Virus record (IMG/VR): IMGVR_UViG_2859810971_000007
DNA from: a virus
Lineage: Duplodnaviria; Heunggongvirae; Uroviricota; Caudoviricetes
Reading direction: 5' to 3' (one strand)
Length of the DNA stretch: 64,000 bases
Of the stretch, positions 7,951-53,373 are shown piece by piece (positions within the stretch are counted from its first letter, which is position 1; every line of letters starts with the position of its first letter). A program made the translations under genes and the position numbers. The notes below the pieces were generated by a model that did no database searches, was not told the DNA's origin, and was given only the letters and a program-made list of their open reading frames with translations.

Positions 7951-8229
7951 CGAGTAAATCCGGTAATTTATCCCCCGCACGCGCGCACTGATTCGCTCCC
8001 TTAGCAATAAGGATTTTCAGATGATCAATATGACGCGGCGTTAAATCCGGGAACTGTCGTTGCATGGACAAAGGAATGGAGTCAAGCGTACTGGATAAAG
8101 CCATCGCCAGCTTACTAAGGGCAAAAATACAAAATCCGGTATCGATAAGATTTCCTTTTGACACCTGATTTTTTAACTGCTGTGCGACAGCCTGTTCTGC
8201 GGTCAGTTCCCATCTGGCAATGAGTAGTT
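7922..8229 (-). pseudogene. nu1: Terminase small subunit Nu1, C-terminal fragment truncated by IS600
   Basis: Translation ...GFCIFALSKLAMALSSTLDSIPLSMQRQFPDLTPRHIDHLK matches lambda Nu1 C-terminus; N-terminal part replaced by IS600 end at 8230. Confidence 0.6.
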
Positions 8230-8271
8230 TGAGGTGTACTGGCAATAGCGGACACTACCATTTGTTCTTTT

Positions 8272-9090
8272 TTAAGCAGCCATCTGATGATATTTTTCCC
8301 TGAAGGCTGCCGGGGAGATATTCCCCAGACGAGAGTGACGACGCTGACGATTGTAGAAAATCTCAATGTATTCCCGTATTACTGAGATGGCTTCATCCCG
8401 GTTATTAAAACGATAGTGGCTCAGGCTCTCATTTTTCAGCGTTCCCCAGAAGCTTTCCATCGGAGCATTGTCGTAACAGTTACCTTTACGCGACATTGAT
8501 GTTTTCAGACCAAACTGCTCCTGTATGACCCGGTAATCGTATGCGCAGTACTGTGAACCTCGATCAGAGTGGTGGATTAGCCCGGCAGGTGGGCGCTGGC
8601 TCCTGAGCGCCATAAACAGGGCTTTACCTGTCAGCTCTTTTGTCATGCGCTCTCCCATGGCGTAGCCGACAATTTCGCACGTATAAACATCTTTGATGCC
8701 AGCGAGGTACAACCATCCCTCCTGTGTGGCAACATACGTCAGGTCCGCCACCCAGACCTGATTTGGTGCTGTAGGAGCGAACGTCTGGTTCAGCAGATTT
8801 GGCGCAACTGGCAGATTGTGGTTCGGGTTCGTAGTCGCTCTGAACTTGCGTTTCTGCTTACAGCGTAGCCTCAGCTCCTTACGAAGACGTGCCAGTCGGT
8901 CACGACCAACGATGATGCCATTCTCTGCCAGCTCCGTCTGGAGCCGCCGGGTTCCATATGTTTCGCGAGTGCGGATATGTGCCACCTTAATCTCCAGTTT
9001 TAGCCGCTCATCACTTTGTTTTCTGTCTGAGGGTTCATGCTGTACCCAGTTGTAATAACCGCTCCTGGATACACCAAATACCTGACACAT
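8272..9090 (-). CDS. IS600 OrfB transposase (DDE)
   Basis: 272-aa ORF near-identical in all five copies; IS3-family integrase-core motifs. Confidence 0.9.
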   Translation of the reverse strand: MCQVFGVSRSGYYNWVQHEPSDRKQSDERLKLEIKVAHIRTRETYGTRRLQTELAENGIIVGRDRLARLRKELRLRCKQKRKFRATTNPNHNLPVAPNLLNQTFAPTAPNQVWVADLTYVATQEGWLYLAGIKDVYTCEIVGYAMGERMTKELTGKALFMALRSQRPPAGLIHHSDRGSQYCAYDYRVIQEQFGLKTSMSRKGNCYDNAPMESFWGTLKNESLSHYRFNNRDEAISVIREYIEIFYNRQRRHSRLGNISPAAFREKYHQMAA

Positions 9091-9366
9091 CGCTTCAATG
9101 GGAAATTGTTGTCGCCATTGTTCGATTAACGCGTATTTTTCAGCGACTCCTGTGCAAAATACGCTGTTGCTTTTTTTAATATATCGCGCTCAAGGCGAGC
9201 TTCATTTAACGCCTTACGCAGTTGCAGAATTTCAGATTCCAGTTCAGCCACCGTGCGGGAACCAGGAGTACCGAGCCCTTTTCTGGCGGCGGTAACCCAT
9301 TGTCCTAAAGTGTGAACCGCCCCGGGAATCCTGGAGACTAAACTTCCTGAGAAAGAGGTAAACAGG

Positions 9367-10881: not shown

Positions 10882-11567
10882 CTGATACATATCCCGCCCC
10901 CCGACAGACCTGTGCTATCGGAAAGAAAAAAGGCCATCAGCAAAACTCTGATGGCCTGAATCACCTTTACCAATATTGTATGAAAAAACACGCACGACTA
11001 ATTGACAATAATTTTCATTTCCATTAAAAAAGATCGCGCAGCATTCTTAATTCATGAGGAACTTTACCCGCCAGCAATCTGAGTAGCGAAAGCTGTTCAT
11101 CCCAATGTTTTTGCTGGCGGGTCCTTTTTTCTACGGTCCTCCTCCCCGGAGGGGCATTTCATTATTTTTCTAATCGTTACTGGTGAGAAGGCGGAAGAAA
11201 AAGCCAGTTCTTCGCCCCTAAATAATAGCATGATTCCAGTCCATGCAAAATCTGATTTCCAGCTCACACATACCGAGCACTGTACAAAAAACCGCCAACC
11301 AAGGCAGTTAAGAGTGTGTTCCCGGGGTTTGCTTAGAATATTTTGTAAGTTGTCCGAAGAGATATTTACAACACCAGAATGATGCATTATCAGTCCCCTG
11401 CCAGAGGTTCACTACGTAACCTGACCGACAATGCACCATTCTGGTGCTGAAAAAAGAGCACTGGAACTGCAACAAAACAACATCACAGAACAGGAGATGG
11501 TAAGGAGTCAGACATTCCCACACAATATTGTGTCAGTGCAAATAACAACCTTCGTCTCAAATCTCGC

Positions 11568-11642
<75 letters not shown>

Positions 11643-11645
11643 ATA

Positions 11646-11720
<75 letters not shown>

Positions 11721-11722
11721 GC

Positions 11723-11799
11723 TGGCCCACCACCGAGGACTCGAACCTCGCACCGTCAACTTAGAAGGTTGATGCTCTATCCGGATGAGCTAGTGGTGG
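11723..11799 (-). tRNA. tRNA-Arg (anticodon TCT)
   Basis: 77 nt; anticodon loop CTTCTAA; acceptor CCACCAC/GTGGTGG; identical to plus copy. Confidence 0.75.
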
Positions 11800-11800
11800 T

Positions 11801-11877
11801 TGGTGGCCCTTGCTGGACTTGAACCAGCGACCTGGCGATTATGAGTCGCTCGCTCTGACCAACTGAGCTAAAGGGCC
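11801..11877 (-). tRNA. tRNA with CAT anticodon (ileX-like, Ile2 or Met)
   Basis: 77 nt; anticodon loop CTCATAA; sequence close to E. coli ileX as recalled. Confidence 0.75.
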
Positions 11878-11961
11878 GGAGGCAGAATAATAACCATATG
11901 TCATCACATCTGCAAACTCATCTGATCACCAGCACGTTTAACGTCCTGTGCCGTTTTTCAG

Positions 11962-11990
11962 GTATAAAAAAAACCGCATAAAGCGGGCTC
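11962..11990 (-). terminator. Candidate tR'-like intrinsic terminator downstream of Q-like gene
   Basis: Minus-strand short hairpin CCGC..GCGG followed by T8 run, between Q-like gene and tRNA array. Confidence 0.4.
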
Positions 11991-12066: not shown

Positions 12067-12621
12067 TCAAAAAGCAATAACTTTTTTCTCTATACCAAAA
12101 GCCATAACCATTGGTTTGTGCAAAATAAATTCTGCCACCTTTAGCCAATGCTCAATGCGTCTTTCACAGGTTCTTAAACTCCATTTCGGGTGTGCATCAT
12201 TCAGCAGTTCAGCCATTTTGCATTTGGTCATCCCCCGCCCCTCATACCGTTGCCGAAGGACGCTAATCAATCCTGGATGCTCTGCCAGCACCTCACTTAT
12301 GACCCGATCAATACATAACGCCTCTGCATCAGTACAATGCGCCAGCCAGCTCTTTTGCTTACCGTTAATCATATCCCGCAAAAAAGCCTCAAGTTCAGAC
12401 TTGTTCAGACCTGCTTTTTTCATCCTCCGGAGCGCCTCGTTAATTGCCGTTTTTGTCAGCTTTTTAGAGGTCAACATCAGGTTAAACATATTCCCCGTCT
12501 TACCGCCACCAATATACGACCAGCGCCCCCACATACGTAGTTTTCCCTGAATCCAGACACTTTCCAGCGTGGTGAGACGAAGGTGTTCTCCGCTTTTTCC
12601 TGTATTCGTTGGGTAAATCAT
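12067..12621 (-). CDS. Putative late-gene antiterminator (Q-like)
   Basis: 184 aa from MIYPTNTGKSGEHLRL; immediately upstream of terminator and tRNA array, the position Q occupies; family assignment by context. Confidence 0.45.
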   Translation of the reverse strand: MIYPTNTGKSGEHLRLTTLESVWIQGKLRMWGRWSYIGGGKTGNMFNLMLTSKKLTKTAINEALRRMKKAGLNKSELEAFLRDMINGKQKSWLAHCTDAEALCIDRVISEVLAEHPGLISVLRQRYEGRGMTKCKMAELLNDAHPKWSLRTCERRIEHWLKVAEFILHKPMVMAFGIEKKVIAF

Positions 12622-12908
12622 AAATATCCATCCTTTCTCCAGATTTCTTGTGTGCGAAAAACACCTTCTGCATGCATCAGGCGTAATTCTTCTTTGGTGT
12701 AATCGCTGGTTTTTACCCGCCCGTCGATTAAATCGTGGCACGAGCTACAGGCAATCGCTGCCTGCATATCGTGTGGCTTTATCGCTGTTCCGCACGTTCC
12801 CGCCAGTCGGTAATGCGCCAGCACAGACGTTTCCGGAGCGTGATTGCAGTAGCCAGGAATTCTGACGGTGCACATCTGCCCCCGCGCCGCTTTAAGTAAA
12901 TCCACCAT
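12618..12908 (-). CDS. YbcO-like (DUF1364) prophage protein
   Basis: 96 aa with Cys-rich motifs (MCTVRIPGYCN..., IACSSCHDLID) resembling DLP12 YbcO. Confidence 0.5.
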   Translation of the reverse strand: MVDLLKAARGQMCTVRIPGYCNHAPETSVLAHYRLAGTCGTAIKPHDMQAAIACSSCHDLIDGRVKTSDYTKEELRLMHAEGVFRTQEIWRKDGYL

Positions 12909-13507
12909 TACGCAAACTCCAGCAGCTGCGCGGCCACATTTTCGACTTGTTCCGGAGAGGAAAATTTACGGAACAGAATCCAGTTCCACAGCACATTCAG
13001 TACAGATTTATAAACCTGCTGAAACTCGGTTTCGTCCATATTCGCAAACGCGATAGATTTCGCCCGACACCCACGGCTACCGTCCGGATAAAAATGCTCG
13101 GTGTAAAATCCGGCCTGAATGGCTACCCACTCGCGGAAAGCCTCAAACGACTTTAGCAATGCCGTATCACGGGTTCTGCGTGTCGCAACTGTATTCAGAT
13201 ATTGCTCTGCGGCTTCGCTCAGAGCTGGCGTATGTTCCCGGCCTACTGATTCACACAGGTAATCAACGAAACCGGACACCAGTTTTCGTTCGCGAGGCGT
13301 GATCGCCCCACCGACCGGAGTCCAGTAATCGAAACCCAGTTGCAGGAGTTTGAAAAAACGCTTGTGGAATGCGTAGTTACGCACACGCTTAAAGTCTGCG
13401 TGTATCCACTCACCTATTTTGATTTGATGCAGAAAATCGCAACTCTCCGGCGTCGCCGGGAGAAGTAATCCGGAAGAGGTTTGTTTGACCAGTTGTATAT
13501 GTGCCAT
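12908..13507 (-). CDS. DUF1367-like phage protein
   Basis: 199 aa from MAHIQLVKQTSSGLLLPATPESCDFLHQIKIGEW; nin-region position. Confidence 0.4.
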   Translation of the reverse strand: MAHIQLVKQTSSGLLLPATPESCDFLHQIKIGEWIHADFKRVRNYAFHKRFFKLLQLGFDYWTPVGGAITPRERKLVSGFVDYLCESVGREHTPALSEAAEQYLNTVATRRTRDTALLKSFEAFREWVAIQAGFYTEHFYPDGSRGCRAKSIAFANMDETEFQQVYKSVLNVLWNWILFRKFSSPEQVENVAAQLLEFA

Positions 13508-13545
13508 CGGCTTTCTCCGGTGGCACGGTGTTACACAGCAGGAGT

Positions 13546-13833
13546 TCAATCCTGCTCAAGATTGTAGATGAGTTTATTCTTCAGCAAAAGCAGAAAACCA
13601 GCCTTAAAACCAATCTTTTTCAAAACCCGTAATGATGTGACAAATTCGTCCTCACGCAAAATAAAACCGTCCGTCAGAAGTCCATTACAAAAATAAAATA
13701 ACACAGCACCGCTCTTCCTTTGTTGAGATTGCAAACATCTAATGCGGCAATGGCTGACAATCGCTCCATTCTCAACGCGCACAGCATAGAGGCCATTTTC
13801 ACTAAAAATTTCACGCAATTCTTCGATTTTCAT
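13546..13833 (-). CDS. Hypothetical prophage protein
   Basis: 95-aa ORF with coding-like composition next to hok; no family recognised. Confidence 0.3.
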   Translation of the reverse strand: MKIEELREIFSENGLYAVRVENGAIVSHCRIRCLQSQQRKSGAVLFYFCNGLLTDGFILREDEFVTSLRVLKKIGFKAGFLLLLKNKLIYNLEQD

Positions 13834-14082
13834 CTTCAGAATCCTTCCAGATAAATAGCTCTCCCCTGTTCGGGGTCCATCCCTCTTCTCCCTGCGCGCT
13901 ACTTAAGTGAGTCGATTCTATCTGCGAAGGTGCGCGAATCAAATTCACCGGAAATAAACAACAAAAAACCCGCCGAAACGCTGAGAGATCACAGCGATGG
14001 GCGGGTTAAGTGCGGGTGCGTTGAGGATGCCTGACACATCAGAGGTGGGCGGGGATGGGATCAGCTCCCCACCCGGTCACTC

Positions 14083-14238
14083 TTACTTCCTGGATTCGTA
14101 GTCTACGAAGACAGCGACCTCCGTCTGGCCGGTTCGGATTCGTACCTCACAGAGGTCTTTCCTCGTTACCAGTGCCGTCACTATGACGGTTAAACAGATG
14201 ACGATCAGGGCGATTAACATCGCCTTTTGCTGCTTCAT
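14083..14238 (-). CDS. hokD: Hok/Gef family type I toxin (HokD/RelF-like)
   Basis: 51 aa MKQQKAMLIALIVICLTVIVTALVTRKDLCEVRIRTGQTEVAVF...; in-frame upstream extension in ORF track is probably not translated. Confidence 0.8.
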   Translation of the reverse strand: MKQQKAMLIALIVICLTVIVTALVTRKDLCEVRIRTGQTEVAVFVDYESRK

Positions 14239-14465
14239 AGCCTGCTTCTCCTTGCCTTTCGGCATGTAAGAGGCTAACCTACATGTGCAAAGCATGAAAT
14301 TGGCCTCAGATTAATGTTAAGCGTCTTGCCGGACGCGTAATGTTAACTGGGGCTTTTCTCTATCTGCCTTTTGGTGTTCATGCCTGAAGCAGATAGCCTC
14401 AAGCACCCGCAGTCATTCTACTTACCTCGCCAATATGAAATCAATCAGAAAGGTGCCCCATAAAA

Positions 14466-15152
14466 TCACTCCTTCTCTTCTTTACCGTAGTGGAGTTGAC
14501 CAATTTTGATAAGAGGGCGTCCCTGAGATTTGCGGTGTAGATTGGTATCGCGCAGAGAATACACACAGCCACAATATTCCTGCTGATAGAATTTTTCGCG
14601 CTTGCTGATTTCAATCATACGGGACGAGCCGCCCTGCTTGCGCCAGTTATAATCCCAGTACACCATGCCCGGATAATGCGCGACGGCTCGCCGCCCACAG
14701 TCGTTAACCTGCTGCATATTTTTCCAGCGTGAAATGCCCAGTGAACTGCTGATCACACTGAAACCATTTTCAGCGGCGTACAGCGCTGTCCGCTCAAAAC
14801 GCATGTCAAAACACATGGTGCAACGGATCCCTCGTTCGGGCTCCCATTCCATTCCTTTGGCTCGTTCAAACCAGTTGTCTGTGTCGTAATCAGCATCAAT
14901 AAACGGCACGCCGTGTTGTTCAGCAAAGCGAATATTCTCATCCTTACGAATTAAATACTCTTTCTGAGGATGAATGTTCGGGTTGTAGAAAAAGATGGTG
15001 TAGTCGATTCCCGAGGCCTGAAGCGCCTCCATCACCTCACCGGAACATGGAGCACAGCAAGAGTGCAGTAGTAGTTTGTTTGCCCCGTTTGGGAGCTCCA
15101 ATTTGGGCCGTTTGAAATCAGCAACTGTCATAAATATGTTTATTGAGGTCAT
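14466..15152 (-). CDS. DUF208 / QueH-like protein (putative epoxyqueuosine reductase)
   Basis: 228 aa with N-terminal HSCCAPCS plus CTMC and CGCVYS cysteine clusters characteristic of QueH/DUF208 as recalled. Confidence 0.55.
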
Positions 15153-15299
15153 AAAAATATCAAAGAGTGTAGCATTAGAACGGGGCTATCGGAAACAGAT
15201 GTGTGACTGCTCCCCGCCCTTTCGGGCGGTCTCCTGATGATTTGAGGGTGCAGAAATCCCTCCGGTTAAGGATTAAATTTTTAACAGTGCTAAATTTAA

Positions 15300-15656
15300 T
15301 TATTCAGTTCTGGATTTTGTCGCCCTGCGTATCCGCGCTTTCGCGTTACGCTCAATCTGTATCAGCTTTTCTATATTTCTCCGCCTTTCCTGTTCCTCCT
15401 GGCGCAATAGCCTTACATCATCTGCCAGTCTGGTTTCTCTTTTTGCCACAGAGAGCATCCAGTCAAACGGCTCCACAACCGCACCGCAGATTTTACAGCG
15501 GACCTGACGCTCTTTTTCGTCAACCCGTACAGAGGCGTGATGGCAATATGGTCTTTCCGATGGCTTATAAAGAAAATTAACCTGATTACGAGGGTCATCC
15601 TCTTTTATCGGAAATAAAACGATATTGCTTAACTCATCTTCTGGTTTTATTTCCAT
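15300..15656 (-). CDS. Hypothetical zinc-ribbon protein
   Basis: 118 aa from MEIKPEDELSN; CHH...CKIC cysteine pairs; GGAGAGG RBS before ATG 15656. Confidence 0.4.
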   Translation of the reverse strand: MEIKPEDELSNIVLFPIKEDDPRNQVNFLYKPSERPYCHHASVRVDEKERQVRCKICGAVVEPFDWMLSVAKRETRLADDVRLLRQEEQERRRNIEKLIQIERNAKARIRRATKSRTE

Positions 15657-15713
15657 GCTCCTCTCCTTTGATGTGAATGCCAGCGGTAATTGAAGCCTGA
15701 TAGCTAATTTCAT

Positions 15714-16136
15714 TCACAGTATCGCCTCCTGAAAATTACCCTGATAGAAAGCCAGTACACGCTGCATAGCTTCGCTCTTCCGGCACTCGCGACAGATTAT
15801 ATTCAGGCGCCTGTCGTAGCGGCGTATTTCTCCGTCAGGTAATGACCAGATAAGGTCCGGATCAACAACAACCGGTTTCCTCACCTTTACTCTCGAGAGT
15901 TTTTTGCGGGCGCTTTGCCAGTCCTTGCGAGCCTGTTCAGACGGGAATAAGCCGTAGCCAGAATTATATACATCACCACTTGCGACCAGTTCTATGCATA
16001 AGCGACCGACAGACGCACGACTGATACCTGTTTCATCGGACAACTGCCGAATCGTGACCCGACCGTCCTGATGCACGAGTTCCACAATTCGCGTCTTCAG
16101 TTCTTCCCGCTGTTCGGGAGTAAAAGGTTTCGCCAT
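15714..16136 (-). CDS. Hypothetical HTH DNA-binding protein
   Basis: 140 aa; helix-turn-helix-like segment RQLSDETGISRASVGRL. Confidence 0.4.
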   Translation of the reverse strand: MAKPFTPEQREELKTRIVELVHQDGRVTIRQLSDETGISRASVGRLCIELVASGDVYNSGYGLFPSEQARKDWQSARKKLSRVKVRKPVVVDPDLIWSLPDGEIRRYDRRLNIICRECRKSEAMQRVLAFYQGNFQEAIL

Positions 16137-16150
16137 AAATCCTCCTGAAA

Positions 16151-16897
16151 CTACTTAACAACCCTCGAATGGCTAACATTCGGACGCCAGCTCTCCCAGT
16201 TAAAATTCACCCAGCGCCCGCCGTTCATGACCATGCGATCCATCACCCGCTCGCCGAGCAATGTTTTCATCACCTCATAGTTCAGGTTTGTCAGCATCCC
16301 CACGCTACGCATCGACGCTGTCCGGCGATCAACAATCTGGTGCAGCACCACCTGCTCGTTTTTCGTCTCGCGCTGAATGCCAATTTCATCAAGAACCAGC
16401 AGATCCACTTCGCACAGCTCCCGCAAAAATTTTTCGCCTGACTGCCCGTCGTCATAGCTGGCGTGCAGGGCGCTCATAACATCAGCCACGGTAACCACAA
16501 TCACTGTCTGACCGTCTTTCAGCAGGCGATTCCCGATAGCTGCCGCTAAGTGATTCTACCCGGTATCAGGTTTTCCGCTGAACGCAAAATTTGTACACCC
16601 GGTCATCAGTTCATCGGCGATGGATTTCGCCTGGCTTAACGCGTATCGCTGGCCGTCGTTCTGCACCTGGTAATTCGCAAACGAGCATTTACGGTGCAAC
16701 GGCTGGATGCCTGAGCGATTCAGAATTTTTTCCACCCGCAACTGGCGATTCAGGCGGTTGATCTCCTCGCTACGTTTCTGGCCTTCAGCAAGTTGCCACT
16801 CGCGCCACTCCGCTACCGTTCTGAATGGGGCGGTTACATGTGGCGGGGTCAGTCGGCGGATGCGTTCCAGAACGCCGCCTGTCGCAATATTTTTCAT
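16151..16897 (-). pseudogene. DnaC-like helicase loader with in-frame amber codon
   Basis: Colinear with E. coli DnaC; single frame reads FSGKPDTG-TAG-NHLAAAI; TAG at 16556-16558 sits where the Walker A lysine is expected. Confidence 0.7.
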
Positions 16898-16903
16898 GGT
16901 CCG

Positions 16904-17674
16904 TTACCCCCTGAAGCCTGGCGGGATCGCACTGTCCGGCAACGAGACGGTGTTAACCTGTCGGAGCAACGTCTCAGGCCGAACACCTTTCGGCGCGAAC
17001 AGGCCCTGGTATTCATTGGCGATGCTGTGTCGAATCACCTGCTCAGGTGTAAAACCCTGCTGACGGAATTTTTCCAGTTCCCGTATCGCCCTGCTCCGTT
17101 CGAATCGGTTTTCGCAATGCCTGTCTGAACCGGACCCACTCATGCCAGAGTGTTTCCGGCAACCAATCGGGCAGCTCAATAGCCTCCGGCTCGAATTTTT
17201 TAGACGCTCGTTTTTGGCGAGGGGATTTAGGGGGAGATCAGTATTTAGATCTTCCTCTTCCACTGGTAACGCTTTTTGATCCGTTTGTGTAACGCTGGCA
17301 GCGTTACCTTTTCGTTTCAGTTCGCGTATTTTTGTTACTCGCTCGTTTGTAACCGCCCGTTTTTTAGAGCTTTTTCCGTTATGACGTTCAAAGTTAGGTA
17401 GAGAAAGCCCACCGTCATTTTCGACCAGCCATCCAACCTGAATTAACGTATCAGCAAAACCAGACATAAAAGTGATGCGATCTATTGCACTTTTTGTAAC
17501 GCCGCGAGCGTTACAATCTGCATTACCGTCTATCATTTGTTGATCCGCCCATGCCCAGAAGCGAATAACCTTCCCTAATGCGGCATCTGGATCAATATTC
17601 AGAATCTCAGCAAGCCTGAATATTTCCGGCTTATCCGGCGTAATAACCTCGAGCTTTATCCAGTTTGAAGCCAT
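16904..17674 (-). CDS. Replication initiation protein (O-like / YdaU-like)
   Basis: 256 aa directly upstream of the DnaC-like gene; contains GTAACGC-N5-GCGTTAC palindromes in its 5' part. Confidence 0.45.
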   Translation of the reverse strand: MASNWIKLEVITPDKPEIFRLAEILNIDPDAALGKVIRFWAWADQQMIDGNADCNARGVTKSAIDRITFMSGFADTLIQVGWLVENDGGLSLPNFERHNGKSSKKRAVTNERVTKIRELKRKGNAASVTQTDQKALPVEEEDLNTDLPLNPLAKNERLKNSSRRLLSCPIGCRKHSGMSGSGSDRHCENRFERSRAIRELEKFRQQGFTPEQVIRHSIANEYQGLFAPKGVRPETLLRQVNTVSLPDSAIPPGFRG

Positions 17675-17751
17675 TTGTTTTCACCTTGTAACGCTCGCAG
17701 CGTTACATTTAACTGATACCGAACAAAACAATCCGGCACGATTAATTTCAA

Positions 17752-18174
17752 TCAATGCACTACGACAGAATCGCCGGGCGACCCACCACCGCTGAAATGT
17801 GCTTTCCGGTAAACGGCCTGGACAGCATCATCATGCGCATCAATTGCCGTACTCAACGCTTCCTGCGCCGCCAGTAATGCACGGCGTTCCAGGGTATCGA
17901 AGATACAGAGTCGGTGACGCAGCTCACGCGGAAGAATTGCCAGAACCGCAGGGATCAGTTTCTGAATTTTTTCCCTTTGCGCTTTCGTTTCACCTTTCAA
18001 CCAACGGTGATAGATATTCTGCTGATTGTTCCAGTCCTTGCCTGGTACCAGAGACAATTCGCCGCCCCCCTGCCGCAGATATTCTTCAGTAATTGCGTTA
18101 GCGACCCACGCCTGCCCTTTTTCGGCTGCCAGGGCTAACAGCACTGATTCGATGTGCTCATGCCTGATTTTCAT
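17752..18174 (-). CDS. ydaT: YdaT-like prophage protein
   Basis: 140 aa MKIRHEHIESVLLALAAEKGQAWVANAITEEYL... resembles Rac YdaT. Confidence 0.55.
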   Translation of the reverse strand: MKIRHEHIESVLLALAAEKGQAWVANAITEEYLRQGGGELSLVPGKDWNNQQNIYHRWLKGETKAQREKIQKLIPAVLAILPRELRHRLCIFDTLERRALLAAQEALSTAIDAHDDAVQAVYRKAHFSGGGSPGDSVVVH

Positions 18175-18385
18175 GAATCACCTTCCCAGGTCGTTTTGCC
18201 TTACGATATTCGTCATAAACTTTGGGGTCGTACTGAAGTTCCCCGCCAGATGCCTCTTGCAGGCGCATCGCGCGACCTTCAGGAACCAGTTCCCCCCATG
18301 CAGCAATGCTTGCCAGCCTAACTCCTGCGGCATTGGCAAGCTTTGTTTTGCTGCCAAAAAACGCTATAGCATCAATTTTCAACAT
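18158..18385 (-). CDS. ydaS: YdaS-like Cro-type HTH regulator
   Basis: 75 aa; divergent from racR-like gene; HTH segment. Confidence 0.55.
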   Translation of the reverse strand: MLKIDAIAFFGSKTKLANAAGVRLASIAAWGELVPEGRAMRLQEASGGELQYDPKVYDEYRKAKRPGKVIHENQA

Positions 18386-18461
18386 ATCGAGCTCCTTAGA
18401 TTTTCCTAAGGAAACTAGACCGTAGAGAAACCTAAGTCAAGAAAAATTAGAATTCCCTAAT

Positions 18462-18869
18462 ATGAAAAACGAAACCTTCGGTGCTCGCCTCTTACATAGG
18501 CGTAAAAAATTAAAACTGTCTCAGGCCGCATTAGGTAAGCTGGTCAAAGTGGCTCACGTAACAATTTCTCAATGGGAAAGAGATGAAACACAGCCGGCGG
18601 GGAAAAGATTATTCGCACTGAGCCAAGCGCTTCAGTGCTCACCGACTTGGCTTCTTTTTGGGGATGAAGATAAACAACCAGGCGAACCGATCCCGGATAA
18701 TCAGCCAGCCATTCTGACAGAAGATCAAAAAGAGTTACTTCAACTGTTCGACGCACTGCCTGAGTCAGAGCAAAAGGCCCTGTTGTCAGAGATGCGTGCT
18801 CGAGTTGAAAATTTCAACAAACTTTTTGAAGAACTACTCAAAGCTCGCAAAAGAAGCGCAAACAAATAA
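18462..18869 (+). CDS. racR: RacR-like CI-type repressor
   Basis: 135 aa; N-terminal XRE HTH (LKLSQAALGKLVKVAHVTISQWERDE); divergent arrangement with ydaS/ydaT. Confidence 0.6.
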   Translation: MKNETFGARLLHRRKKLKLSQAALGKLVKVAHVTISQWERDETQPAGKRLFALSQALQCSPTWLLFGDEDKQPGEPIPDNQPAILTEDQKELLQLFDALPESEQKALLSEMRARVENFNKLFEELLKARKRSANK

Positions 18870-19432: not shown

Positions 19433-19673
19433 ATACCATGCGCATTGACTGAATTCGCAAACAAAAACAGACGCGCGATACCCGGATAGTCGGTCTGCAT
19501 AGTCAGATATCTGGCTGCGAATTTGATAAATATCACCGCCCTTTTCGGAAACATAAGTTCCGTCCGGGAGTTGATTATACGAACCATCTCCATGGGGGAT
19601 CGTTCTCCTGAATCCTAGTGAGAGCATATATTTATGAAGCCCTTCGTAATCCTCTGGCTCAGTGGATTTGCCC

Positions 19674-20579
19674 CTATATTTCCAGACATCTGTTATCACT
19701 TAACCCATTACAAGCCCGCTGCCGCAGATATTCCCGTGGCGAGCGATAACCCAGCGCACTATGCGGATGCCATTCGTTATAATGCTCGAACGCCTCTGCA
19801 AGGTTCTTTGCTGCCGTTAACCCGTCTGGTTTGGGCATGATACTGATGTAGTCACGCTTTATCGTTTTCACGAAGCTCTCTGCTATTCCGTTACTCTCCG
19901 GACTCCGCACCGCCGTGTTCTTCGGTTCAAGTCCCAACATCCGGGCGAACTGGCGTGTTTCATTAGCCCGGTAGCATGAACCATTATCCGTCAGCCACTC
20001 CACTGGAGACGACGGAAGATCGTTGCCGAAGCGGCGTTCCACCGCTCCCAGCATGACGTCCTGTACTGTTTCACTGTTGAAGCCGCCGGTAGTCACCGCC
20101 CAGTGCAGTGCCTCACGATCACAGCAGTCCAGCGCGAACGTGACACGCAGTCTCTCTCCGTTATCACAGCAGAACTCGAACCCGTCAGAGCACCATCGCT
20201 GATTGCTTTCTTTCACGGCCACTCTGCCTGTATGTGCCCGTTTCGATGGCGGTACAGCAGGTTTTCGCTCAAGCAACAGCGCATTCTGGCGCATGAGCCG
20301 GTAAACACGTTTGGCATTGATCGCAGGCATACCATCAAGTTCTGCCTGTCTGCGAAGCAGCGCCCATACCCGACGATAACCATACGTGGGCAGCTCTCCG
20401 ATAACATGGTGTATACGGAGAAGCACATCCGTATCATCAGTGTGACGACTGCGGCGGCCATCCATCCAGTCATCGGTTCGTCTGAGAATGACGTGCAACT
20501 GCGCACGCGACACCCGGAGACAACGGCTGACTAAGCTTACTCCCCATCCCCGGGCAATAAGGGCGCGTGCGCTATCCAC
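19674..20579 (-). CDS. insD: IS2 InsD transposase (OrfB)
   Basis: 301-aa ORF; DDE integrase core. Confidence 0.85.
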
Positions 20580-20902
20580 TTTTTTGCCCGTCCATATTCA
20601 ACGGCTTCTTTGAGGAGTTCATTTTCCATCGTTTTCTTGCCGAGCAGGCGCTGGAGTTCTTTAATCTGCTTCATGGCGGCAGCAAGTTCAGAGGCAGGAA
20701 CAACCTGTTCTCCGGCGGCCACAGCAGTAAGACTTCCTTCCTGGTATTGCTTACGCCAGAGAAATAACTGGCTGGCTGCTACACCATGTTGCCGGGCAAC
20801 GAGGGAGACCGTCATCCCCGGTTCAAAGCTCTGCTGAACAATTGCGATCTTTTCCTGTGTGGTACGCCGTCTGCGTTTCTCCGGCCCTAAGACATCAATC
20901 AT
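20537..20902 (-). CDS. insC: IS2 InsC (OrfA)
   Basis: 121 aa from [19 protein letters not shown]6 slippery run near its end. Confidence 0.85.
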
Positions 20903-21303
20903 CTGTTCTCCAATGACTAGTCTAAAAACTAGTATTAAGACTATCACTTAAATAAGTGATACTGGTTGTCTGGAGATTCAGGGGGCCAGTCTACTCAGCA
21001 TTATATAGTTCTACTCTGGCGAGATACGTTGGCATATTCATTTCCTTACTGGTTGTGTGAGAACTTCAGTAAAGATACCACCAAAGCCCGGAAGTGGTGA
21101 AATAAAACCGGGCACAACACGAAGGCGCATTTCCGGTATCCATAAAGAGTCGGTCTTGTCTGTGAAATTTAAATGGTGGGAGTGCGCTTCCGGTTGTAAA
21201 TAACGACATTGCTGTGTGAAGTACCAGTTGGCGGCATCGGTTTAATTGCTGGCTGATGTCTGAGGTGTACTGGCAATAGCGGACACTACCATTTGTTCTT
21301 TTT

Positions 21304-22122
21304 TTAAGCAGTCATCTGATGATATTTTTCCCTGAAGGCTGCCGGGGAGATATTCCCCAGACGAGAGTGACGACGCTGACGATTGTAGAAAATCTCAATG
21401 TATTCCCGTATTACTGAGATGGCTTCATCCCGGTTATTAAAACGATAGTGGCTCAGGCTCTCATTTTTCAGCGTTCCCCAGAAGCTTTCCATCGGAGCGT
21501 TGTCGTAACAGTTACCTTTACGCGACATTGATGTTTTCAGACCAAACTGCTCCTGTATGACCCGGTAATCGTATGCGCAGTACTGTGAACCTCGATCAGA
21601 GTGGTGGATTAGCCCGGCAGGTGGGCGCTGGCTCCTGAGCGCCATAAACAGGGCTTTACCTGTCAGCTCTTTTGTCATGCGCTCTCCCATGGCGTAGCCG
21701 ACAATTTCGCACGTATAAACATCTTTGATGCCAGCGAGGTACAACCATCCCTCCTGTGTGGCAACATACGTCAGGTCCGCCACCCAGACCTGATTTGGTG
21801 CTGTAGGAGCGAACGTCTGGTTCAGCAGATTTGGCGCAACTGGCAGATTGTGGTTCGGGTTCGTAGTCGCTCTGAACTTGCGTTTCTGCTTACAGCGTAG
21901 CCTCAGCTCCTTACGAAGACGTGCCAGTCGGTCACGACCAACGATGATGCCATTCTCTGCCAGCTCCGTCTGGAGCCGCCGGGTTCCATATGTTTCGCGA
22001 GTGCGGATATGTGCCACCTTAATCTCCAGTTTTAGCCGCTCATCACTTTGTTTTCTGTCTGAGGGTTCATGCTGTACCCAGTTGTAATAACCGCTCCTGG
22101 ATATACCAAAGACCTGACACAT
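21304..22122 (-). CDS. IS600 OrfB transposase
   Basis: 272-aa ORF. Confidence 0.9.
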   Translation of the reverse strand: MCQVFGISRSGYYNWVQHEPSDRKQSDERLKLEIKVAHIRTRETYGTRRLQTELAENGIIVGRDRLARLRKELRLRCKQKRKFRATTNPNHNLPVAPNLLNQTFAPTAPNQVWVADLTYVATQEGWLYLAGIKDVYTCEIVGYAMGERMTKELTGKALFMALRSQRPPAGLIHHSDRGSQYCAYDYRVIQEQFGLKTSMSRKGNCYDNAPMESFWGTLKNESLSHYRFNNRDEAISVIREYIEIFYNRQRRHSRLGNISPAAFREKYHQMTA

Positions 22123-22157
22123 CGCTTCAATGGGAAATTGTTGTCGCCATTGTTCGA

Positions 22158-46501: not shown

Positions 46502-46525
46502 ACCCGCCTCCGGGCGGGTTTTTTA
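46502..46525 (+). terminator. tR'-like intrinsic terminator
   Basis: CCCGCC-TCCG-GGCGGG hairpin followed by TTTTTTAT. Confidence 0.6.
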
Positions 46526-46612
46526 TGCCTGAAAAACGGTACAGGACGTTAAACACGCTGGTGGTCAGATGAGTTTGCAGATGTGATGACATATGGTTAT
46601 TATTCTGCCTCC

Positions 46613-46689
46613 GGCCCTTTAGCTCAGTTGGTCAGAGCGAGCGACTCATAATCGCCAGGTCGCTGGTTCAAGTCCAGCAAGGGCCACCA
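46613..46689 (+). tRNA. tRNA with CAT anticodon (ileX-like, Ile2 or Met)
   Basis: 77 nt ending CCA; cloverleaf by hand; anticodon loop CTCATAA. Confidence 0.75.
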
Positions 46690-46690
46690 A

Positions 46691-46767
46691 CCACCACTAG
46701 CTCATCCGGATAGAGCATCAACCTTCTAAGTTGACGGTGCGAGGTTCGAGTCCTCGGTGGTGGGCCA
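46691..46767 (+). tRNA. tRNA-Arg (anticodon TCT)
   Basis: 77 nt; anticodon loop CTTCTAA. Confidence 0.75.
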
Positions 46768-46769
46768 GC

Positions 46770-46845
<76 letters not shown>

Positions 46846-46848
46846 TAT

Positions 46849-46923
<75 letters not shown>

Positions 46924-47215
46924 GTCAGAGTCTTTCAGTCTGCGATGATGGGAAATCCCGGAGTGACTGAAAGACGTTTAAGTTATGAATGATAGCCTTT
47001 TTTTGCAAAATTGCTGTGCAGAAATACTAACCTTCGGGCGTGCGATCATTCATAAGCACTCTGCTTTTATTCCGATTAACTGTGGGTGGTTTGTTGGATA
47101 GAGTGCTTTCCTTACTGTATATATCGTTTCGCCCGCTTTTGCGTTTTTTTCTTTTCAAATCCCTTTCATTTCTCAGTGTAAAACTACTCCATCCGTTATT
47201 TGCGGAGGTGAGGCT

Positions 47216-50685: not shown

Positions 50686-51394
50686 TTTCTGGACTATGCG
50701 GGCACGTAACAAAGTGCTTTATGGTGGTCGGTCATCGTCAAAATCATGGGATGCCGCTGGCATTGCCATATTTCTGTCGAATAAATACACCCTGCGTTTT
50801 TGTTGTGCCCGTCAGATCCAGAATAAAATCGAAGAGTCGGTGTATACCCTGCTCAAAATTCAGATAGACAGGTTTGGTCTGCGGCACCGTTTCCGTATTC
50901 TGAACAACAAAATCATTAACCGGGTTACTGGCTCGGAATTTGTTTTTTATGGATTATGGCGCAACATCGAAGAAATTAAGTCACTGGAGGGGATCGATGT
51001 GTTGTGGCTGGAAGAAGCCCACGCACTGACGGAATACCAGTGGAAAATTCTGGAGCCAACGATCCGTAAAGAGGGTTCGGAATGCTGGTTCATATTCAAC
51101 CCCGGACTTGTTACTGATTTCGTCTGGCGCAACTTCGTTGTTGATCCGCCCGAAGGCACTCTCATCCGCAAAATTAACTATGACGAAAATCCGTTTCTGT
51201 CTGACACCATGCTTAAGGTTATCGACGCGGCGCGACGCCGTGATCCGGATGGTTTTAAACATGTGTATGAGGGCGTTCCGGAGTCTGATGATGATGCGGC
51301 AATTAGACTGGCCCCCTGAATCTCCAGACAACCAGTATCACTTAAATAAGTGATAGTCTTAATACTAGTTTTTAGACTAGTCATTGGAGAACAG

Positions 51395-51826
51395 ATGATT
51401 GATGTCTTAGGGCCGGAGAAACGCAGACGGCGTACCACACAGGAAAAGATCGCAATTGTTCAGCAGAGCTTTGAACCGGGGATGACGGTCTCCCTCGTTG
51501 CCCGGCAACATGGTGTAGCAGCCAGCCAGTTATTTCTCTGGCGTAAGCAATACCAGGAAGGAAGTCTTACTGCTGTGGCCGCCGGAGAACAGGTTGTTCC
51601 TGCCTCTGAACTTGCTGCCGCCATGAAGCAGATTAAAGAACTCCAGCGCCTGCTCGGCAAGAAAACGATGGAAAATGAACTCCTCAAAGAAGCCGTTGAA
51701 TATGGACGGGCAAAAAAGTGGATAGCGCACGCGCCCTTATTGCCCGGGATGGGGAGTAAGCTTAGTCAGCCGTTGTCTCCGGGTGTCGCGTGCGCAGTTG
51801 CACGTCATTCTCAGACGAACCGATGA
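51395..51826 (+). CDS. insC: IS2 InsC, altered C-terminus
   Basis: Reads ..[17 protein letters not shown].. instead of ..LLPGDGE-stop because of the G3 run at 51746-51748. Confidence 0.6.
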
Positions 51827-52622
51827 CTGGATGGATGGCCGCCGCAGTCGTCACACTGATGATACGGATGTGCTTCTCCGTATACACCATGTTATCGGAG
51901 AGCTGCCCACGTATGGTTATCGTCGGGTATGGGCGCTGCTTCGCAGACAGGCAGAACTTGATGGTATGCCTGCGATCAATGCCAAACGTGTTTACCGGCT
52001 CATGCGCCAGAATGCGCTGTTGCTTGAGCGAAAACCTGCTGTACCGCCATCGAAACGGGCACATACAGGCAGAGTGGCCGTGAAAGAAAGCAATCAGCGA
52101 TGGTGCTCTGACGGGTTCGAGTTCTGCTGTGATAACGGAGAGAGACTGCGTGTCACGTTCGCGCTGGACTGCTGTGATCGTGAGGCACTGCACTGGGCGG
52201 TGACTACCGGCGGCTTCAACAGTGAAACAGTACAGGACGTCATGCTGGGAGCGGTGGAACGCCGCTTCGGCAACGATCTTCCGTCGTCTCCAGTGGAGTG
52301 GCTGACGGATAATGGTTCATGCTACCGGGCTAATGAAACACGCCAGTTCGCCCGGATGTTGGGACTTGAACCGAAGAACACGGCGGTGCGGAGTCCGGAG
52401 AGTAACGGAATAGCAGAGAGCTTCGTGAAAACGATAAAGCGTGACTACATCAGTATCATGCCCAAACCAGACGGGTTAACGGCAGCAAAGAACCTTGCAG
52501 AGGCGTTCGAGCATTATAACGAATGGCATCCGCATAGTGCGCTGGGTTATCGCTCGCCACGGGAATATCTGCGGCAGCGGGCTTGTAATGGGTTAAGTGA
52601 TAACAGATGTCTGGAAATATAG
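51783..52622 (+). pseudogene. insD: IS2 InsD, N-terminally truncated
   Basis: InsD frame is closed by a stop upstream of 51783 as a result of the same 1-nt difference. Confidence 0.6.
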
Positions 52623-53373
52623 GGGCAAATCCAGCAATCATCAAACTGTCTTGGATAGAAGCCGCAGTGGATGCGCACAAAACGTTAAATTTCGAACCCA
52701 GTGGAAGAAAGCGTATTGGCTTTGACGTGGCTGACAGTGGTACAGATAAGTGCGCTAACGTTTACCGTCACGGATCCGTTGTTTTCTGGGCCGACGAATG
52801 GAAGGCCAAAGAAGATGAATTACTGAAGAGCTGCCAGCGTACTTATCAGGCGGCGCTGGAGCGTGAAGCAGATATTGTTTACGACTCTATCGGTGTTGGT
52901 GCGTCTGCCGGTGCTAAATTCTCTGAAATTAACGCTGACCGGAAGAGCGAGAACGCATACGCGCGACGTGTGAATTACCAGAGGTTTAACGCCGGTGCTG
53001 GTGTGCATGAGCCAGATGACGAGTACAACGGCATCCCCAACAAAGACTTTTTCGCAAATCTTAAGGCTCAGGCATGGTGGCTGGTGGCTGACCGTTTCAG
53101 AAATACGTTTAACGCCATTAACAACGGAGAACAGTATCCTGTGGATGAGCTGATCAGCATAGATTCTCGTTGTCCGTTGCTTGAAAAGCTGAAACTGGAA
53201 CTGACAACACCTCATCGTGATTTCGACCGTAACGGACGTGTGATGGTCGAAAGTAAAAAAGACCTCGCAAAACGCGAGATACCGTCACCAAACGTTGCTG
53301 ATGCATTCATTATGGCCTTCGCGCCAATCGATACATCGCTGGATATCTGGGAACAGCTGGGGAGACAGGCCTG

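Follow-up and report, generated by a model that had tools for sequence, protein, structure and literature searches.

Introduction

Queuosine (Q) is formed at position 34 of tRNAs with a GUN anticodon in a short series of steps, in which Tgt inserts preQ1, QueA converts it to epoxyqueuosine (oQ) and either QueG or QueH finally yields Q (PMC5372724, PMC9508795). QueG requires cobalamin (PMC5175355, where Frey et al. (1988) is cited for the cobamide dependence of this step in Salmonella and E. coli). QueH is regarded as the alternative that works without cobamides (PMC6461909). In Shigella, Tgt (VacC) has been linked to VirF expression and virulence (PMC1950534, PMC5041530). As for viruses, a 2019 study by Hutinet et al. 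reported no homologues of QueA, QueG or QueH in the viruses analysed (PMC6884629), and our literature searches found no paper discussing a prophage-borne QueH. Here we describe such a gene, located on the minus strand at 14466..15152 in a stretch of 64,000 nucleotides assigned to a tailed virus of the class Caudoviricetes (IMG/VR record IMGVR_UViG_2859810971_000007), the whole of which is called the window below. Neither E. coli nor Shigella is known to synthesize vitamin B12 de novo.

The reading that we favor, with a probability of about 0.72, is that this queH encodes a functional QueH that was captured together with its own promoter and lets a lysogen complete Q without B12. As a protein, it is an unremarkable representative of a known and already annotated enzyme family, and what is gained concerns biology and context, not a new kind of system. 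Compared with the literature searched, the new elements are that queH is a common and mobile phage cargo in E. coli and Shigella, that it appears to keep a native promoter-like element, and that purifying selection acts strongly on it even though queG is universal.

Results

The window encodes a member of the QueH family

An initial annotation of the window, made from the letters alone, had recognized the QueH/DUF208 signature in a 228-amino-acid (228-aa) protein with an HSCCAPCS motif and further cysteine clusters. The open reading frame (ORF) indeed exists at 14466..15152 on the minus strand and its product carries HSCCAPCS and YCGC, with further cysteine pairs at C111/C114 and C194/C196 (228-aa numbering). 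A profile search confirmed the family: Pfam PF02677 (QueH, formerly DUF208) matched over almost the entire profile (positions 1-174 of 175), with a score of 220.6 bits (cutoff 23.5) and E=1.9e-65. PF02677 was alone among the Pfam domains, with no cobalamin-binding or other extra domain detected in the Pfam scan. No NCBIfam model matched the product, a result that is uninformative either way.

Homology and predicted fold agree with the profile. A phmmer search against the PDB found three distinct QueH sequences, all from Thermotoga maritima, with E=5e-22 for 7LC5. An AlphaFold2 model computed from a 31-sequence alignment reached a mean predicted local distance difference test (pLDDT) value of 95 and a predicted template modeling (TM) score (pTM) of 0.91. 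When this model was searched against the PDB with Foldseek, the top five hits were all T. maritima QueH, with target TM scores of 0.90-0.92 and root-mean-square deviations (rmsd) of 1.2-2.0 Å, the best superposition being that on 7LC5 (target TM 0.92, rmsd 1.2 Å); the runners-up, all of PP-loop type, scored far lower, with only 0.3-0.4 for TtuA and LarE. Moreover, the encoded protein is identical to the RefSeq entry "epoxyqueuosine reductase QueH" of L001, a public locus holding an intact relative of the window prophage. By profile, homology, predicted fold and conserved cysteines, the minus-strand ORF at 14466 is therefore a member of the QueH family.

The start codon needed refinement. The ATG at 15152, which adds 7 codons and gives the 228-aa version, is not conserved, and one prophage allele (L010) has no ATG and an in-frame stop there. 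The second methionine, at position 15131 of the window, is the start used in RefSeq and in all chromosomal orthologues, resulting in a protein of 221 aa. Since the upstream ATG is unconserved and both RefSeq and the orthologues use the downstream one, 15131 is probably the true start, and we take the coding sequence as 14466..15131 on the minus strand (221 aa plus stop), with the PF02677 match, the homology to 7LC5, the fold and the RefSeq identity described above.

We also noticed that starts are often misplaced in the opposite direction in phage databases. The PHROGs profile phrog_3217 begins at residue 34 of the protein, and an internal methionine (MEALQAS...) is the start of 14 of the 150 database representatives listed. 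As both the profile and these representatives start internally, many phage and metagenome gene calls appear to be truncated at the N-terminus and thus to lack CCAPC, which may be the cause of the "unknown function" label that the family bears in phage databases.

The conserved residues of the family are all present

Conservation was assessed in an alignment of the protein with 30 relatives (31 sequences), reaching down to 35% identity. All invariant columns are kept in the window protein, namely C25, C26, C29, N52, E58, R62, E99, R103, C104, C107, R111, K137, Q184, C187, G188, C189 and S192 (221-aa numbering). The metal-ligand framework CCxxC(D) ... RCxxC ... YCGC is complete, including all seven cysteines conserved in the family. 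In the paper on 7LC5, the conserved residues are reportedly assigned to a [4Fe-4S] cluster and to a single iron next to it.

One position differs from the crystallized enzyme. In a pairwise alignment, Asp13 of T. maritima, a residue that the depositors mutated (D13N in 9DCO), pairs with Cys29 of the window protein (CCAPD versus CCAPC). Column counts over the family, made on 86 representatives clustered at 50% identity and in agreement with the 31-sequence alignment, gave Cys in 71 and Asp in 1 of the 73 representatives with a residue there. Cys29 is therefore not a defect; it is T. maritima that is the exception.

queH moves as a compact cassette within a variable cargo slot

The gene sits in the nin-type cargo slot of a Rac-like early region, where the initial annotation had placed it, between the prophage replication genes (YdaT-, YdaU- and YdaV-like) and the hok-Q-tRNA segment. 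We aligned five prophage contexts with differing upstream and downstream genes and looked for the borders of the shared sequence. Similarity starts about 75 bp before ATG 15131 and stops sharply about 4 nt past the stop codon, delimiting a whole mobile cassette of about 740 bp (14462..15202, minus strand). Upstream of the coding sequence, a conserved leader or putative promoter region (15132..15202, minus strand) travels with the gene; among 29 unique upstream sequences, positional conservation does not fall below 0.9 as far as about -77.

Around this cassette the neighbors change freely. Among 94 sampled queH copies we counted 24 upstream and 19 downstream contexts. The upstream neighbor can be a zinc-ribbon gene, as in the window, a methyltransferase remnant or a short hypothetical ORF running in the opposite direction (L010); in E. 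coli O157:H7 Z1832 (L011) no cargo gene separates queH from DUF977, the conserved phage gene that precedes the variable slot. DUF977 precedes queH in L001, L008 and L010-L012, and does so too in 7 of the 10 loci L013-L022. Downstream, queH is followed by hok, as in the window, or elsewhere by a DUF1971 gene or, in O157:H7 Z1832, by a Dcm plus NgoMIV-type restriction-modification pair. In addition, at least a portion of the 2.2-kb flanking region is matched in 4821 of the 5426 complete E. coli genomes, while queH is found in 995. A discrete insert that is present or absent between conserved phage genes of related phages is one mark of a phage moron, and queH is such an insert. As a separate observation, the pair in L011 (5872-7882) consists of a DNA cytosine methyltransferase and an NgoMIV-family restriction endonuclease directly after queH, replacing hok, which indicates that the same slot takes defence cargo.

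A promoter-like element is shared with chromosomal orthologues

Within the leader, GATGCTACAC is invariant in all five prophage contexts and yields the extended -10 TGCTACACT, a promoter-like element at 15166..15174 (minus strand), 35 nt upstream of ATG 15131. The same motif (TGCTACAMT, or TGCTACCCT) occurs at -42 to -44 in 6 of the 7 closest loci, that is, in one E. albertii prophage copy and in five chromosomal orthologues, whose upstream sequences are otherwise unalignable. Over a wider set, an extended -10 was present in 21 of 79 loci versus 4.5% of random 100-nt windows. The candidate came from the comparative alignment alone and is a match to the consensus only; it would represent the native queH promoter carried along with the gene. 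Its conservation suggests that queH may be expressed independently of the lytic programme, possibly by transcription from this -10 in the lysogen.

This element bears on an alternative in which a working QueH serves the phage in lytic growth only, being transcribed from pR with the delayed-early operon and completing Q for the translation of late genes. queH is always co-oriented with the flanking replication and Q antiterminator genes, in an early rightward operon position, it is carried at the same place by the complete phage genome HannyBb, and a review reports a rise of Q during infection by one Shewanella phage (PMC13191261). All this fits a lytic role; however, the extended -10 common to the cassette and the closest chromosomal orthologues argues for phage-independent transcription, queH is also intact in prophage remnants that are incapable of lytic growth, and the codons decoded by Q tRNAs are unbiased in late genes. 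We thus consider an exclusively lytic function unlikely, and note that a lytic role and a role in the lysogen are not mutually exclusive.

queH is common in E. coli and always accompanied by queG

The initial annotation had called a prophage-borne queH unexpected, on the grounds that E. coli normally uses QueG. The second part holds, as queG was found in 5426 of 5426 complete E. coli genomes. The first was overstated: the 687-bp queH is present at 90% identity or more in 995 of the same 5426 genomes, nearly always as a single chromosomal copy, and RefSeq already labels these copies "epoxyqueuosine reductase QueH". Among the strains that carry it are E. coli C, a derivative of E. coli B, O157:H7 strains and O7:K1 CE10. 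Because queG is universal, QueH is in E. coli proper always a second enzyme for the step and never a replacement.

The same gene is frequent in other collections. In a large assembly collection, 5483 indexed blocks contain exactly this 221-aa protein, and 212 viral contigs of IMG/VR encode a QueH relative, the best 80 being 99-100% identical to the window protein. In Escherichia phage HannyBb, a complete GenBank genome, queH occupies the same position and is annotated "hypothetical protein"; phrog_3217, which matches the protein with E=1.7e-138, is marked "unknown function" in PHROGs. Genome annotation thus recognizes QueH and phage annotation does not. These results correct two gaps in the record, namely the 2019 survey without QueH in viruses and the PHROGs label through which phage pipelines call the gene hypothetical.

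We also considered whether the enzyme could act elsewhere than on host oQ-tRNA, that is, on 7-deazaguanine in phage DNA (a role that the initial annotation had raised), in the salvage of free epoxy-queuine or its nucleoside, or in the protection of Q-tRNA from anticodon nucleases. Phages do use 7-deazaguanine chemistry on DNA (PMC6884629), and a QueH crystal structure with free queuosine exists (9DEU). The genes that a DNA-modifying system would share are nonetheless missing: no DpdA/TGT-like transglycosylase gene was found among the 47 annotated features of the L001 prophage, from integrase to tail genes, nor among the Pfam-scanned ORFs of the window, and L001, where profile searches covered only part of the hypothetical ORFs, has no other annotated 7-deazaguanine gene and hence none of the preQ0-synthesis genes FolE, QueD, QueE and QueC. 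The window was also searched for another copy or a fragment of queH, and none was found. Moreover, the protein shares 80-92% identity with housekeeping QueH and does not diverge at conserved sites, and QueA, QueG and QueH were absent from the DNA-modifying viruses analysed by Hutinet et al. (PMC6884629). We consequently rejected the DNA-modification role, as its partner genes were not found in the intact relative prophage, and regard a different substrate or function in general as very improbable.

The gene was probably captured from a chromosome and is under purifying selection

The closest relatives outside Escherichia come from Scandinavium (92%), Kluyvera (91%), Enterobacter (89-90%), Symbiopectobacterium (87%), Erwinia (86%), Providencia (84%) and Photorhabdus (80%). 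In the cases inspected, queH has chromosomal settings among housekeeping genes: it lies between purL and glrK in Erwinia, next to tmcA in Providencia, near pseudouridine synthase and chorismate mutase genes in Enterobacter, and near a short-chain dehydrogenase/reductase (SDR) gene and a gene of the metallo-beta-lactamase fold in Scandinavium. None of the markers of the window prophage was found at any of the non-Escherichia queH loci inspected. As the relatives lie among housekeeping genes without prophage markers, the phage queH appears to be a captured housekeeping gene with an Enterobacteriaceae-like donor. Synonymous sites are saturated with respect to the chromosomal orthologues, so that the donor cannot be dated; together with the unremarkable GC content, this saturation suggests that the capture was not recent.

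Since then the protein has been under long-term purifying selection. Pairwise ratios of nonsynonymous to synonymous substitution rates (dN/dS) among five distinct prophage alleles are 0.025-0.076, with dS of 0.15-0.45 except for one closely related pair. The reading frame was intact in 94 of the 94 sampled copies. In addition, insertion sequence (IS) elements have eliminated most of the prophage in several Shigella-like genomes, some with an IS 168 bp upstream of queH and others with the downstream genes replaced, and all of them still encode the identical QueH protein.

These data bear directly on a further explanation, according to which queH is a neutral passenger retained by a recombination-prone slot beside the addictive hok/sok module. 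It is true that hok is the immediate neighbor in the window and in many related loci, and that QueH is formally redundant in a host that always has queG. A neutral passenger would hardly be reconciled, however, with dN/dS of 0.025-0.076 over dS up to 0.45, with the 94 intact copies, or with the occurrence of queH without hok in O157:H7 Z1832, where the restriction-modification pair takes its place, and in strain 200177. Overall, this explanation is quite improbable.

queH lies in the early region of a defective prophage

Along the minus strand, cI-like and Cro-like regulators come first, followed by a YdaT/CII-like gene (17752-18174), a replication initiator (16904-17674), a DnaC/YdaV-like gene split in two (16151-16897), a DUF977 or Ren-like winged-helix protein (15714..16136; PF06163 1.1e-33; phrog_142 "Ren-like exclusion protein" 2.7e-44) and a zinc-ribbon-like small protein of unknown function (15300..15656; phrog_1621 5.6e-56; Zn_Ribbon_TF 2.3e-4, below cutoff). 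Directly downstream of queH there is a mok/hok type I toxin gene (14083..14295; PF01848 9.8e-23; annotated hokD in L001), a cargo module separate from queH and missing in some queH contexts. Next come a Rem-like gene (13546-13833), DUF1367 (NinB/Orf-like in PHROGs), YbcO and a DUF1133 Q-like antiterminator (12067-12741). After it there are four tRNA genes, Met/Ile-CAU, Arg-UCU, Thr-UGU and Gly-UCC (11568-11877).

The two small genes at 15300-15656 and 15714-16136, taken at the outset for uncharacterised genes flanking queH, both turned out to lie upstream of it; the first does remain of unknown function, its zinc-ribbon match being sub-threshold, but the second belongs to the known DUF977 family. 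A GC-rich hairpin at 15214-15229 (CCGCCC-GAAA-GGGCGG, minus strand) with no U-tract follows the zinc-ribbon gene just upstream of the cassette border. It belongs to that neighbor, as among the five contexts it was seen only with the zinc-ribbon gene.

None of the four phage tRNAs is a Q substrate, and a link between queH and the tRNA array was accordingly discarded. A second array (46519-46924, plus strand; Met/Ile-CAU, Arg-UCU, Thr-UGU and Gly-UCC) is an inverted match of 98.5% identity over 406 bp to 11567-11971 (minus strand). It adjoins DnaC-like (43217-44104) and DnaB-like (44101-45492) genes; this is a second lambdoid prophage remnant, without queH.

The window prophage is defective and riddled with IS elements: its DnaC-like gene is broken, IS copies are scattered through the window, and in L016, the public locus that matches, the interval from the tRNAs to the following IS has no called lysis genes. 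The halves of the DnaC/YdaV-like gene, at 16151-16504 and 16556-16897 (minus strand), encode 117 and 113 aa, whereas L001 and L014 have a single 248-aa gene. An IS of about 1265 bp is present in five copies, one of them truncated (8227-9312, 21258-22524, 32704-33969, 41456-42720 and 58327-59592), a 1331-bp IS in two inverted copies (19663-20993 and 51304-52633), and an IS of at least 753 bp in two copies (27628-28380 and 63248-64000). Within each set the copies are 99.4-99.9% identical, and their density is typical of Shigella-like genomes.

Between IS copies, a few kb from the prophage early region, there is a gene for an IpaH-type type III effector E3 ligase of 608 aa with LRR_TTSS and NEL domains (E=2.5e-75; 23323-25149, minus strand). 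As the window carries this IpaH-type NEL E3-ligase gene, the host is taken to resemble Shigella or enteroinvasive E. coli (EIEC). On the plus strand, a Toprim-like ORF (34181-35698, 505 aa) and a LAGLIDADG-like ORF (35647-36864, 405 aa) are neighbors, and might be a primase-type gene with a homing-endonuclease-like companion. Finally, at 28457-30208 and 30349-31632, an aconitase gene that is truncated at its 5' end and begins directly behind an IS copy adjoins a pectinesterase-like gene (possibly ybhC); this looks like an IS-mediated rearrangement joining distant chromosomal regions beside the prophage.

Discussion

The observations on the protein, the cassette and its selection can be brought together in a model of how queH may work. 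QueH would be a small single-domain iron-sulfur enzyme that reduces oQ to Q at wobble position 34 of the host tRNA-Asp, -Asn, -His and -Tyr, acting as a non-orthologous, cobalamin-independent counterpart of the host QueG. A lambdoid phage would have taken the gene and its promoter from an Enterobacteriaceae chromosome, and the cassette of about 740 bp would since have moved in the variable cargo slot that separates the replication genes from the Q antiterminator. In the lysogen, oQ-tRNA made by the host Tgt and QueA could be finished either by QueG, which needs B12, or by the phage QueH, so that Q would still be completed when B12 is scarce or QueG is limiting; this independence from B12 would be the selective benefit. 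The identity of 80-92% to chromosomal QueH and the intact conserved residues suggest that the enzyme converts oQ-tRNA without cobalamin. Considering its orientation, queH may also be read with the early operon after induction.

Several points weigh against this model. A generic sigma-70 and terminator scan around queH gave nothing convincing, and it did not flag the extended -10, which lacks a good -35. Downstream of queH, where conservation ends about 4 nt past the stop codon, no terminator of its own was predicted, and there is no compositional signature, the GC content of queH being 0.49 versus 0.49 for the early region (12067-18869). With queG present in every host, QueH is redundant as long as there is B12, and any phenotypic difference between oQ and Q is putative. 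We found no activity, cofactor or expression data for the window allele or its close relatives. Nor do the prophage genes show an NAU/NAC codon bias, with an NAU fraction of 0.53 versus 0.56 in the host sample; the idea that the phage needs Q for its own codon usage is unsupported by these fractions. Lastly, the adjacent hok module could contribute to the retention of the region in the window. The constraint at the level of the protein cannot be explained by hok, and queH also occurs without it.

If QueH is active in lysogens, whether four tRNAs bear Q or oQ would be determined by prophage content in addition to the supply of B12. This would be a simple example of a tRNA-modification gene of the housekeeping type that is carried by a temperate phage. 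Common laboratory lineages (an E. coli B derivative and E. coli C) would then differ from K-12 in the queuosine pathway, a difference that matters for studies of tRNA modification and for work with queG mutants.

A broader interpretation, which we put forward tentatively and at somewhat less than even odds, is that carriage of queH amounts to a lysogenic conversion of the tRNA epitranscriptome, where carriers finish Q without B12 while K-12-type strains stop at oQ, and where the gene has possibly been domesticated in Shigella. If true, about a fifth of E. coli strains, among them the E. coli B derivative, E. coli C and some O157:H7, as well as Shigella-like genomes, would finish queuosine without B12. 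Shigella queH has outlived its decayed prophage and, given the link between VirF and Tgt, may have been domesticated by the host; a connection to virulence would be speculation.

Comparison with known systems

With QueH of T. maritima (7LC5/7LC7/9DEU), the window protein shares the family, the fold and the CC...CxxC...CxC cysteine framework. The two proteins are only about 30% identical; the T. maritima Asp13 is a Cys in the window protein, which also has short N- and C-terminal extensions. Chromosomal QueH proteins of Enterobacterales are much closer, being near-identical and of equal length, and the closest ones have the extended -10 about 43 nt upstream. They are encoded among housekeeping genes without phage markers, whereas the window queH is phage cargo in a host that bears QueG.

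E. coli QueG carries out the same conversion of oQ34 to Q34 on tRNA, according to the literature (PMC5372724, PMC5175355). It belongs to an unrelated family with cobalamin and [4Fe-4S] cofactors, and queG is universal and chromosomal while queH is accessory and prophage-borne. The phage 7-deazaguanine clusters (DpdA with FolE/QueD/QueE/QueC; Hutinet et al. 2019) are likewise phage-carried genes of the queuosine/7-deazaguanine pathway. They insert preQ0-type bases into DNA, in contrast to the window, which has a lone late-pathway, tRNA-specific gene without a transglycosylase.

In its genetic behavior queH resembles other morons of the nin region, such as hok and restriction-modification pairs, as it is present or absent among similar prophages, lies between conserved early genes and has a candidate promoter of its own. 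It differs from them in having neither its own terminator nor a compositional anomaly, and in its cargo, a housekeeping-type tRNA-modification enzyme instead of a toxin, a defence system or a virulence factor.

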